From NCBI RefSeq assembly GCF_051903065.1, contig NZ_CP178438.1: a stretch of 64,000 nucleotides of DNA; one strand, 5' to 3'. Numbering within the stretch: the stretch's first letter is position 1; the number at the start of each line of letters is the position of its first letter. Positions 31,321 through 34,142 of the stretch are shown here, piece by piece. The notes below the pieces were generated by a model that worked only from the letters and a program-made list of their open reading frames with translations, did not search any database and was not told the DNA's origin. Source of the stretch: Escherichia coli. GTDB taxonomy: Bacteria; Pseudomonadota; Gammaproteobacteria; Enterobacterales; Enterobacteriaceae. The position numbers and the translations under genes are program-made.

Positions 31321-31557
31321 TTAGCGCTTACCTTCCGCCAGCAGCGGCGGGATGCTCGGCACCATTGGCGCGTCATCAATATCTTTCTGCGTCATGCGGA
31401 ACGCTTCGGGATAATGTTCGCGGCTGGTACGGCGCAGCGGTTCGGTATCGCGCCAGGTATAAAGGCAATGCTGGCACTGATATACCGTCCAGACATCTTT
31501 CACCGGCGATTTCGCCATCACTTCAATCTGTTCATCGGCACAACGTGGACAAATCAT
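31321..31557 (-). CDS. ecdD: Small zinc-ribbon subunit D of a UbiX/UbiD-type aromatic acid decarboxylase (BsdD/VdcD/KpdD family)
   Basis: 78 aa with CxxC...CxxC (MICPRCADEQ...CQHC); immediately downstream of the UbiD-like gene; symbol follows my recollection of E. coli O157 naming and needs confirmation. Confidence 0.7.
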   Translation of the reverse strand: MICPRCADEQIEVMAKSPVKDVWTVYQCQHCLYTWRDTEPLRRTSREHYPEAFRMTQKDIDDAPMVPSIPPLLAEGKR

Positions 31558-31567
31558 CTTGTTCTCC

Positions 31568-32995
31568 TTATTTACGTGCAGCCAGCATAGCGGTCAGTTT
31601 TTCAGCCCAGGCTTTGGTTTCCGGCAAATCCACCACCGGCTGGCTGTAGTGACCACGGTTGTCCGGGGCGACAGGCGTGGTGGCGTCGATAATCAGCTTG
31701 TCGGTGATCCCCGCCGGGCTTGAGCCAGGGTCGAGTTCCAGCACGGACATATTCGGCAACTGCACCAAATCCCCTGCCGGATTTACTTTCGAGGAGAGCG
31801 CCCACATCACCTGCGGCAGGTTGAACGGGTCAACGTCTTCATCGACCATAATCACCATCTTTACGTAGCCCAGACCGTGCGGCGTGGTCATCGCACGCAG
31901 GCCCACCGCGCGGGCAAAGCCGCCGTAGCGTTTTTTGGTGGAGATAATCGCCAGCAGGCCGTGGGTGTACATGGCGTTTACCGCCTGCACTTCCGGGAAC
32001 TCGGCTTTCAGTTGTTGATACAGCGGTACGCAGGTGGCTGGCCCCATCAGGTAGTCGATTTCGGTCCACGGCATGCCGAGGTACAGCGATTCGAAAATCG
32101 GCCTGGTGCGGTAAGAGACTTTATCGATGCGCACCACGGTCATGTTACGCCCGCCGGAGTAGTGTCCGGTAAACTCACCGAACGGCCCCTCGATTTCGCG
32201 TTTACGGCTTTCGATGACCCCTTCGAGGATCACTTCTGAACCCCACGGCACATCAAAACCGGTCAGCGGGGCGGTGGCGATCGGGTACGAGCTTTCACGC
32301 AGCGCGCCTGCCATTTCATACTCAGACTGATCGTATTTCAGCGGCGTGGCCCCCATCAGCGTGATGATCGGATCGTTACCGAGCGTGATGGCAATCGGCA
32401 GATCTTCACCGCGCTCTTCTGCTTTATGCAGATGCAGGGCGATATCGTGCATCGGCACCGGTTGCAGGCCGAGCTTACGCTTGCCCTTCACTTCCATGCG
32501 GTAGATGCCGACGTTCTGCTTGCCGAAGTTATCTGGGTCGAGCGGATCGCGGGAAACCACGCACGCTTTGTCGAGATAGAAACCGCCATCACCGTCGTTT
32601 AAACGAAACAGCGGCAGGATATCGAACAGATTAATCTCGTCACCATCGACGGTGTTCTGCGCCCAGGCTGGATTGGCGCGGCGCTCCGGGGCGATCGGGA
32701 AGTTATCCCAGCGGCGGATAAACTCATCAATCTGTTTTTTAACCGGGGTGTTTGGCGGCAGGCCCAAGGAAATCGCGTGGTTCTGCCAGGAACCGATGGT
32801 ATTCATCGCCACGCGGGCATCGGTAAAACCGCGAATATTATCAAACCACAGCGCCGGTGCACCATCGCCGATACGCCCGGTGGCGTTGGCAGCGGCAGCC
32901 AGATCCGGTTCCGCGTTCACCTCTTCGCTGATTTTCAGTAACTGGCCGTGGTCATCAAGCGCCTGTAAAAAGCTGCGTAAATCATCAAATGCCAT
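31568..32995 (-). CDS. ecdC: UbiD-family (prFMN-dependent) aromatic acid decarboxylase, subunit C
   Basis: 475 aa UbiD-like translation; operon order B-C-D on minus strand. Confidence 0.8.
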   Translation of the reverse strand: MAFDDLRSFLQALDDHGQLLKISEEVNAEPDLAAAANATGRIGDGAPALWFDNIRGFTDARVAMNTIGSWQNHAISLGLPPNTPVKKQIDEFIRRWDNFPIAPERRANPAWAQNTVDGDEINLFDILPLFRLNDGDGGFYLDKACVVSRDPLDPDNFGKQNVGIYRMEVKGKRKLGLQPVPMHDIALHLHKAEERGEDLPIAITLGNDPIITLMGATPLKYDQSEYEMAGALRESSYPIATAPLTGFDVPWGSEVILEGVIESRKREIEGPFGEFTGHYSGGRNMTVVRIDKVSYRTRPIFESLYLGMPWTEIDYLMGPATCVPLYQQLKAEFPEVQAVNAMYTHGLLAIISTKKRYGGFARAVGLRAMTTPHGLGYVKMVIMVDEDVDPFNLPQVMWALSSKVNPAGDLVQLPNMSVLELDPGSSPAGITDKLIIDATTPVAPDNRGHYSQPVVDLPETKAWAEKLTAMLAARK

Positions 32996-33588
32996 TATTC
33001 ATTCTCCTGAGAAAAATTCCGGGCCTGCGGCAATCCTTGCCAGCGCCTGGCGTGGGGATGTTCGAGGCCAAATTGATCCAGCACGCGGGCTACTACATGG
33101 TGGACAATGTCATCTACCGTTTCGGGATGGTTATAAAAGGCAGGCATCGGCGGCACCATCGCCACGCCCATGCGTGAAAGTGCGAGCATATTTTCGAGAT
33201 GGATGGTGCTAAGCGGCATTTCACGCGGCACCAGCACCAGTTTGCGGCCTTCTTTGAGCACGACGTCCGCCGCGCGCCCTACCAGGCCATCAGCGTAACC
33301 AGCGCGGATACCGGCGAGCGTTTTCATACTGCACGGAATAACGATCATGCCGTCGGTACGAAAGGAACCTGAGGAGATGGTCGCCGCCTGATCCGCCGGG
33401 TTATGGCTGAAGTCAGCGAGGGCAGCAACATCGCGGGCGCTGTAAGGCGTTTCCAGTTCAATGGTGGTTTTCGCCCACTTCGACATCACCAGATGAGTCT
33501 CGACATTCGGCATCTCCCGCAGCGCTTGCAGTAATGCCACACCAAGAGGCGCACCGGTAGCCCCTGTCATCCCGACGATCAGTTTCAT
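32995..33588 (-). CDS. ecdB: UbiX/Pad1-family flavin prenyltransferase, subunit B
   Basis: 197 aa; N-terminal MKLIVGMTGATGA flavoprotein motif typical of UbiX. Confidence 0.8.
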   Translation of the reverse strand: MKLIVGMTGATGAPLGVALLQALREMPNVETHLVMSKWAKTTIELETPYSARDVAALADFSHNPADQAATISSGSFRTDGMIVIPCSMKTLAGIRAGYADGLVGRAADVVLKEGRKLVLVPREMPLSTIHLENMLALSRMGVAMVPPMPAFYNHPETVDDIVHHVVARVLDQFGLEHPHARRWQGLPQARNFSQENE

Positions 33589-33605
33589 TGCTTATTCTCT
33601 TAATT

Positions 33606-33619
33606 GTTCGTATACGAAC
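33606..33619. promoter_or_regulatory. Perfect 14-bp palindrome, candidate MarR-type operator
   Basis: GTTCGTATACGAAC, 18 nt upstream of the ecdB start codon in the divergent intergenic region. Confidence 0.35.
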
Positions 33620-33734
33620 GTTATTATTAAAATACGCCTCTGTTCTCATCGCGGCAAGCACTGAAAAGTAACAACATCCCCTTCGTCACTGAAAAACCGC
33701 TATGATAGCGGCAGAGAATTAGCCCGGAGTTTAC

Positions 33735-34142
33735 ATGGCGTTACGAAATAAAGCGTTCCATCAGTTACGACAGCTTTTTCAGCAGCACACATCTCGCTGG
33801 CAGCATGAGCTACCTGGCCTGACCAAACCGCAGTACGCGGTGATGCGCGCCATTGCTGATAAGCCTGGTATCGAACAGGTTGCGCTGATGGAAGCAGCAG
33901 TCAGCACCAAAGCAACGCTGGCAGAAATGCTGGCAAGAATGGAGAATCGTGGCTTAGTCAGACGTGATCATGATGCCGCTGACAAGCGGCGTCGCTTTGT
34001 CTGGCTGACTGCCGAAGGAGAAAAGATACTTGCTGCGGCGATACCGATTGGTGACAGCGTGGATGAGGAATTTTTGGGGCGTTTGAGTGCAGAAGAGCAG
34101 GAGCTGTTTGTGCAGCTGGTGCGCAAGATGATGAACACATAG
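33735..34142 (+). CDS. MarR/SlyA-family winged-helix transcriptional regulator
   Basis: 135 aa; MarR-type wHTH (LTKPQYAVMRAI...GLVRR); divergent from the decarboxylase cassette. Confidence 0.8.
   Translation: MALRNKAFHQLRQLFQQHTSRWQHELPGLTKPQYAVMRAIADKPGIEQVALMEAAVSTKATLAEMLARMENRGLVRRDHDAADKRRRFVWLTAEGEKILAAAIPIGDSVDEEFLGRLSAEEQELFVQLVRKMMNT

Follow-up and report, generated by a model that had tools for sequence, protein, structure and literature searches.

The 14-bp palindrome between hosA and the hydroxyarylic acid decarboxylase operon of Escherichia coli is very probably the known HosA operator, and it is conserved across related species

In the 64,000-nucleotide stretch of Escherichia coli DNA analyzed here (contig NZ_CP178438.1; hereafter the window), a gene for a MarR-type regulator and the first gene of a decarboxylase operon are divergently oriented, and the 146-bp intergenic region that they share (33589–33734) contains a perfect 14-bp palindrome. 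Which protein, if any, recognizes this palindrome, and which of the flanking genes is controlled through it, is the question addressed in this study. The palindrome, GTTCGTATACGAAC (GTTCG-TATA-CGAAC; 33606–33619, without strand), is equal to its own reverse complement on inspection of the sequence and is referred to below as O1. There are 17 nt between it and the minus-strand ATG of the decarboxylase subunit-B gene (33588), which corresponds to a position difference of 18. The first-pass annotation had described a perfect 14-bp palindrome at these positions, 18 nt upstream of the ecdB start and in the divergent region common to ecdB and the MarR gene. Its coordinates and description were correct, with 17 intervening nt, and 33589–33734 is exactly the interval between the subunit-B gene and the start of the MarR gene (33735).

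At the scale of the window, a 14-bp palindrome is by itself not exceptional. Six perfect 14-bp palindromes were observed, compared to 5.7 ± 2.5 expected from first-order Markov simulations, which is what a functionless palindrome arising by chance would predict; the number expected per 146-bp intergenic region is about 0.01. Because the count is at chance level, any argument for O1 must rest on its position and conservation. GTTCGTATACGAAC occurs only once in the window when two or fewer mismatches are allowed. The pattern GTTCGN4CGAAC with up to two arm mismatches had 33 matches in the 64 kb, but only the one at 33606 was perfect, and three others (11756, 16350, and 38182) had one arm mismatch. 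Scanning of 33589–33734 revealed no second HosA site at up to two arm mismatches. The degenerate CTTCGTCACTGAAA (33681–33694) was considered as a second HosA site and dropped, given its three arm mismatches and poor conservation. A terminator-like call on the plus strand at 33605–33620 corresponds to O1 itself.

The gene on one side of the region (33735–34142, plus strand) encodes a 135-aa repressor of the MarR/SlyA family, as judged from the open reading frame and the matches to MarR-family models. Its product is identical at 129 of 135 positions (96%, full length, E = 3.8e-82) to the protein deposited as "Transcriptional regulator HosA" (PDB 8aga), and it also matched six further entries of crystallized HosA (8pq4, 8wsv, 8xb7, 8xzu, 8ycv, and 9vrv). 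By these sequence comparisons, the adjacent divergent MarR gene is hosA. On the other side, all on the minus strand, are the genes for the three subunits of a non-oxidative hydroxyarylic acid decarboxylase: subunit B (ecdB; a UbiX-type flavin prenyltransferase; 32995–33588), a 197-aa open reading frame that is the first gene of the operon; subunit C (ecdC; a UbiD-type decarboxylase; 31568–32995); and subunit D (ecdD; 31321–31557). They scored above the cut-offs of the NCBIfam models VdcB (NF041206, 312 bits), VdcC (NF041204, 788 bits), and VdcD (NF041205, 121 bits), respectively, and the RefSeq annotation agrees that the regulated neighbor of O1 is the B/C/D operon. The locus is placed between mutS-pphB and rpoS, and the same annotation is found in the RefSeq genome of strain ECNB21-M121, which is identical at the locus. 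A 501-bp query across the intergenic region matched 2389 of 5426 complete E. coli genomes (44%), always on the chromosome.

In other strains of E. coli, a binding site for HosA has already been characterized. Cao et al. (2018; PMC6261655) combined purified HosA of E. coli UMN026 with a synthetic 43-bp DNA "containing 14-bp TFBS of HosA." As reported there with reference to Roy and Ranjan (2016), HosA bound the 14-bp site by electrophoretic mobility shift assay (EMSA) and biolayer interferometry (BLI), and 4-hydroxybenzoate (4-HBA) led to dissociation; binding in vitro was nanomolar and responsive to 4-HBA, and the Kd of HosA for 4-HBA, measured by ITC, was 4.7 μM (PMC6261655). The operator of UMN026 HosA goes back to Roy and Ranjan (2016; Biochemistry 55:1120; PMID 26818787; reused in PMC6261655 and PMC6694116). 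According to the summary of that work in a preprint (bioRxiv 10.1101/2024.04.24.590444), with which a second preprint agrees, HosA represses both its own gene and the hydroxyarylic acid decarboxylase (HAD) operon, and 4-HBA relieves the repression.

The published site is the same as O1. The oligonucleotides in Table S1 of PMC6261655 contain GTTCGTATACGAAC with native flanks. The 59-mer probe equals the window at 57 of 59 positions, the two differences being at 33584 and 33591, outside the palindrome. It should be noted that a T-run in the machine-read text of Table S1 was taken as inflated, and the palindrome was read as a 14-mer, because the same 15-mer appears on both complementary strands and the stated lengths fit the 14-mer only. 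Once the T-run is corrected, the 59-mer is found without any mismatch in a native E. coli genome (L078). Thus, the UMN026 operator and the window share the 14 bp, the flanks (57 of 59 positions), the divergent layout of hosA and the B-C-D genes and the mutS-rpoS interval. The window differs in coming from another E. coli lineage and in the two substitutions close to the ATG of subunit B, for which no functional difference is expected. The first-pass annotation had proposed, from the raw sequence and without tools, that the palindrome was a candidate operator through which the neighboring MarR regulator controls the divergent operon. This proposal is supported: the regulator is HosA, and the exact 14-mer is the HosA site for which EMSA and BLI experiments, of the kind that the annotation had suggested, have already been performed with other E. 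coli strains. We consider it very probable (approximately 0.93) that HosA, encoded by the divergent gene, has the palindrome as its operator. As such, O1 is an already known and characterized element and is not novel.

Conservation was determined in a species-level scan with one genome per species, which yielded 75 loci that encode a relative of HosA. The motif GTTCG-N4-CGAA(C/T) was found in 72 of them, upstream of the decarboxylase operon and nearly always 15–21 nt before the first ATG. In the alignment of these 72 intergenic sequences, O1 is the best-conserved 14-bp block: its ten arm positions are 99.7% identical and its central four 84%, compared to 49% for the other intergenic positions. 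The central tetranucleotide is TATA in 28 sequences, TGTA in 23, CATA in 9, TACA in 7, TATG in 4, and CACA in 1 (i.e., YRYR), while the arms are invariant except for the last base in Rahnella, so that the cross-species consensus is GTTCG-YRYR-CGAAC. From this pattern, the arms GTTCG and CGAAC are the probable recognition half-sites and the central YRYR is variable. The motif is absent from two of the 75 loci, those of Vibrio and a member of the Comamonadaceae, in which the MarR homolog has no adjacent decarboxylase genes; the third exception, the actinobacterium Fodinicola, has the near-copy ATTCGTACACGAAC.

These results bear on two of the alternatives. If the palindrome were a functionless product of chance, its arms and position would hardly be kept from Escherichia to Rahnella and Leminorella in otherwise poorly conserved intergenic DNA, with a near-copy in an actinobacterium. 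Together with the published binding, this conservation refutes the chance explanation despite the unexceptional number of palindromes in the window, and we regard it as the least probable of all. It could also be argued that O1 is the operator of, or is shared with, another transcription factor and that HosA is not its main ligand in vivo. The sequence alone is compatible with such an explanation, and cross-talk among SlyA-like proteins is conceivable given that fliC is also reported as a HosA target. However, the site co-occurs with a hosA homolog and the decarboxylase operon in 72 of the 75 loci, is missing from the two loci where no decarboxylase adjoins the MarR homolog, and is bound by HosA at nanomolar, 4-HBA-responsive affinity (PMC6261655), all of which make another main ligand very improbable.

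Several loci depart from the usual arrangement. In Enterobacteriaceae bacterium LSJC7 (L064), the perfect palindrome (1919–1932) is 16 nt from the subunit-B ATG, while hosA is about 570 bp away in an intergenic region of about 600 bp. The site thus stays near the subunit-B ATG despite the distant hosA, which indicates that the operator tracks the decarboxylase promoter and not hosA. In Superficieibacter and one Enterobacterales MAG (L055, L063, and L069), the subunit-B gene is missing beside hosA, and the operator is directly upstream of subunit C.

Within E. coli, O1 is invariant in seven intergenic haplotypes (94–100% identity), and the neighboring promoter spacer exists in two clearly different versions. 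The stretch from the operator to the -35 (33620–33662 of the window, compared with L079–L082) is either of the window type, AAAATACGCCTCTGTTCTCATCGCGGCAAGCAC, or of the 55989 type, AACATACTCCTTCATTTCCACAGCGGCAAGGAT; neither type alters the operator, the -35 TTG or the -10 TA..TT. The window sequence from 33400 to 33900 is 100% identical only to that of E. coli ECNB21-M121, which was from meat in China. Just five of the 2389 genomes are at least 99% identical over this stretch, the rest being 90–97% identical (94–97% for most strains), so the window derives from an uncommon lineage or has an uncommon allele of this polymorphic stretch between mutS and rpoS.

The position of O1 relative to the promoters is relevant to how it would act. 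A scan of 33500–33800 with the sigma-70 consensus returned no promoter at the threshold, and the -35 and -10 of the decarboxylase promoter were therefore assigned from conserved blocks. Two blocks between the operator and hosA are separated by 17 nt in every genus, namely a CAAG/CAAT block (33655–33658), at least 80–90% conserved with constant spacing, and a TA..TT block conserved across genera. We infer from these blocks, for the window strain, a predicted -35 of TTGCCG (33653–33658, minus strand), which reads TTGTCA in many other genera, and a predicted -10 of TATTTT (33629–33634, minus strand), which scored below the threshold of the consensus scan and is 9 nt upstream of O1. If TTGCCG-17-TATTTT is the decarboxylase promoter, transcription would start near 33621–33623, and O1 would occupy about +3 to +16. 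This predicted placement agrees with the preprint's summary of Roy and Ranjan (2016), in which the palindromic HosA site is downstream of the transcription start (bioRxiv 10.1101/2024.04.24.590444), and with the published description of its action as a transcriptional roadblock. The first-pass annotation had also noted that MarR dimers typically bind palindromes overlapping the promoter of the regulated operon. The operator role is supported, but O1 does not lie across the predicted -35 and -10; it is just downstream of the predicted -10 and start.

If transcription starts as predicted, the palindrome would also be transcribed and could form a stem of 5 bp with a loop of 4 nt, which raises the possibility that it works at the RNA level, as a hairpin in the untranslated 5′ leader of the decarboxylase transcript that affects stability or translation, and not through protein binding. 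Such a hairpin would be weak (-4.9 kcal/mol, z = -1.4), as 17 of 200 shuffled sequences folded equally well, and it excludes the ribosome-binding site, which is left free. The stem bases are invariant, with no covariation across the 72 loci. Invariant arms with a tolerant center are what would be expected of base-specific contacts made by two symmetry-related recognition helices and not of a covarying RNA stem, and the published binding of HosA is to the DNA duplex (PMC6261655). We therefore find a leader hairpin highly unlikely and retain the HosA operator as the explanation of O1.

On the hosA side, a second palindrome, CCGCTATgATAGCGG (33697–33711, without strand), is found 23 nt upstream of the hosA ATG, and its core CTAT[C/G]ATAG is kept across genera. 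It contains TATGAT (33701–33706), conserved as TAT[C/G]AT, which is the likely -10 of hosA. The conserved block GGAG (33726–33729, plus strand), 5 nt upstream of the ATG, is assigned as the hosA ribosome-binding site. A terminator-like score on the minus strand at 33712–33696 was rejected as a terminator; its T-run is found in Escherichia only.

Taken together, these features suggest how the switch would operate. One recognition helix of a HosA dimer would sit on the GTTCG half-site and the other on CGAAC, the centers of the two half-sites being 9 bp apart; these contacts are predicted from the conserved arms. Bound just downstream of the -10 and start, HosA would block promoter escape or early elongation of the B/C/D operon, and the position of O1 makes such a roadblock or promoter-escape block the more likely form of repression. 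When 4-HBA, the substrate of the enzyme, binds HosA, the protein would leave the DNA and the operon would be transcribed. The binding of the 14-mer, the release by 4-HBA and the repression of the operon and hosA are the work of others; the identities of the genes and the site and the conservation of the site and promoter blocks come from this analysis. O1 is approximately 80 bp from the likely hosA -10, and autorepression of hosA from this single site is thus not explained by simple occlusion.

In other genera, a second, imperfect operator-like site (O2) is found at a fixed distance of 56–57 bp from O1, just beyond the decarboxylase -35, in 33 of 71 related loci (L007, L012, L017, L020–L024, L029–L032, L036, L038–L050, L053–L054, L057–L060, and L074). 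Its consensus is GTTCGYRYRCGATC or a CGGCC variant, in which the left arm is intact and the right one degenerate; in Klebsiella or Enterobacter it reads GTTCGTACACGATC. The genera with O2 are Klebsiella, Enterobacter, Kluyvera, Pseudocitrobacter, Lelliottia, Leclercia, and Pluralibacter. O2 is absent from the corresponding positions of the window (33659–33680) and from all loci of Escherichia, Citrobacter, and Salmonella, the intergenic regions of which are shorter. A literature search on ecdB/kpdB regulation or a second HosA site found nothing relevant.

The same divergent cassette is found in the actinobacterium Fodinicola feengrottensis (L073), in which the B and C subunits are 72–74% identical to those of the window and the MarR protein 48%. 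Its short divergent region carries two tandem sites, the near-copy of O1 mentioned above and ATTCGTCTACGACC, which are 15 bp apart (L073:2447–2476). This arrangement suggests that the regulator, operator and operon were transferred together between phyla. We tentatively propose, while considering it somewhat short of an even chance, that the two-operator HosA architecture is ancestral and was simplified in Escherichia, Citrobacter, and Salmonella, and that the regulator, operator and decarboxylase genes are mobile as a unit across phyla. If this is true, O2 may make repression cooperative or dependent on looping, or may tighten autoregulation.

Classical operators of the MarR/SlyA/OhrR type are palindromes or pseudopalindromes of 12–20 bp in a divergent promoter region that are bound by a winged-helix dimer, which is released by its ligand. 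In contrast to many of these sites, which overlap the -35 or -10, O1 in the window is just downstream of the predicted start, and Escherichia has a single site rather than two. PcaV of Streptomyces coelicolor is, like HosA, a hydroxybenzoate-responsive MarR repressor; it senses protocatechuate and, through the pcaI-pcaV operators, regulates a divergent operon for aromatic acids. Among solved structures other than those of HosA, it is the closest relative (PDB 4fht, E = 1.5e-15); its ligand and regulated pathway differ from those of HosA, and the comparison was made at the protein level.

Reading of the raw sequence without tools thus correctly singled out a real, experimentally validated operator. 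What may be new in this study is confined to the comparative picture: the consensus sequence, the constant geometry, and the additional site in other genera. While the understanding of the system is unchanged, the GTTCG-YRYR-CGAAC consensus and the second site could guide comparative study of the regulon and engineering of biosensors, for which the HosA switch is already in use in vitro. 4-HBA arises when parabens and plant phenolics are broken down, and the HosA/4-HBA switch governs its conversion to phenol in close to half of complete E. coli genomes (~44%).
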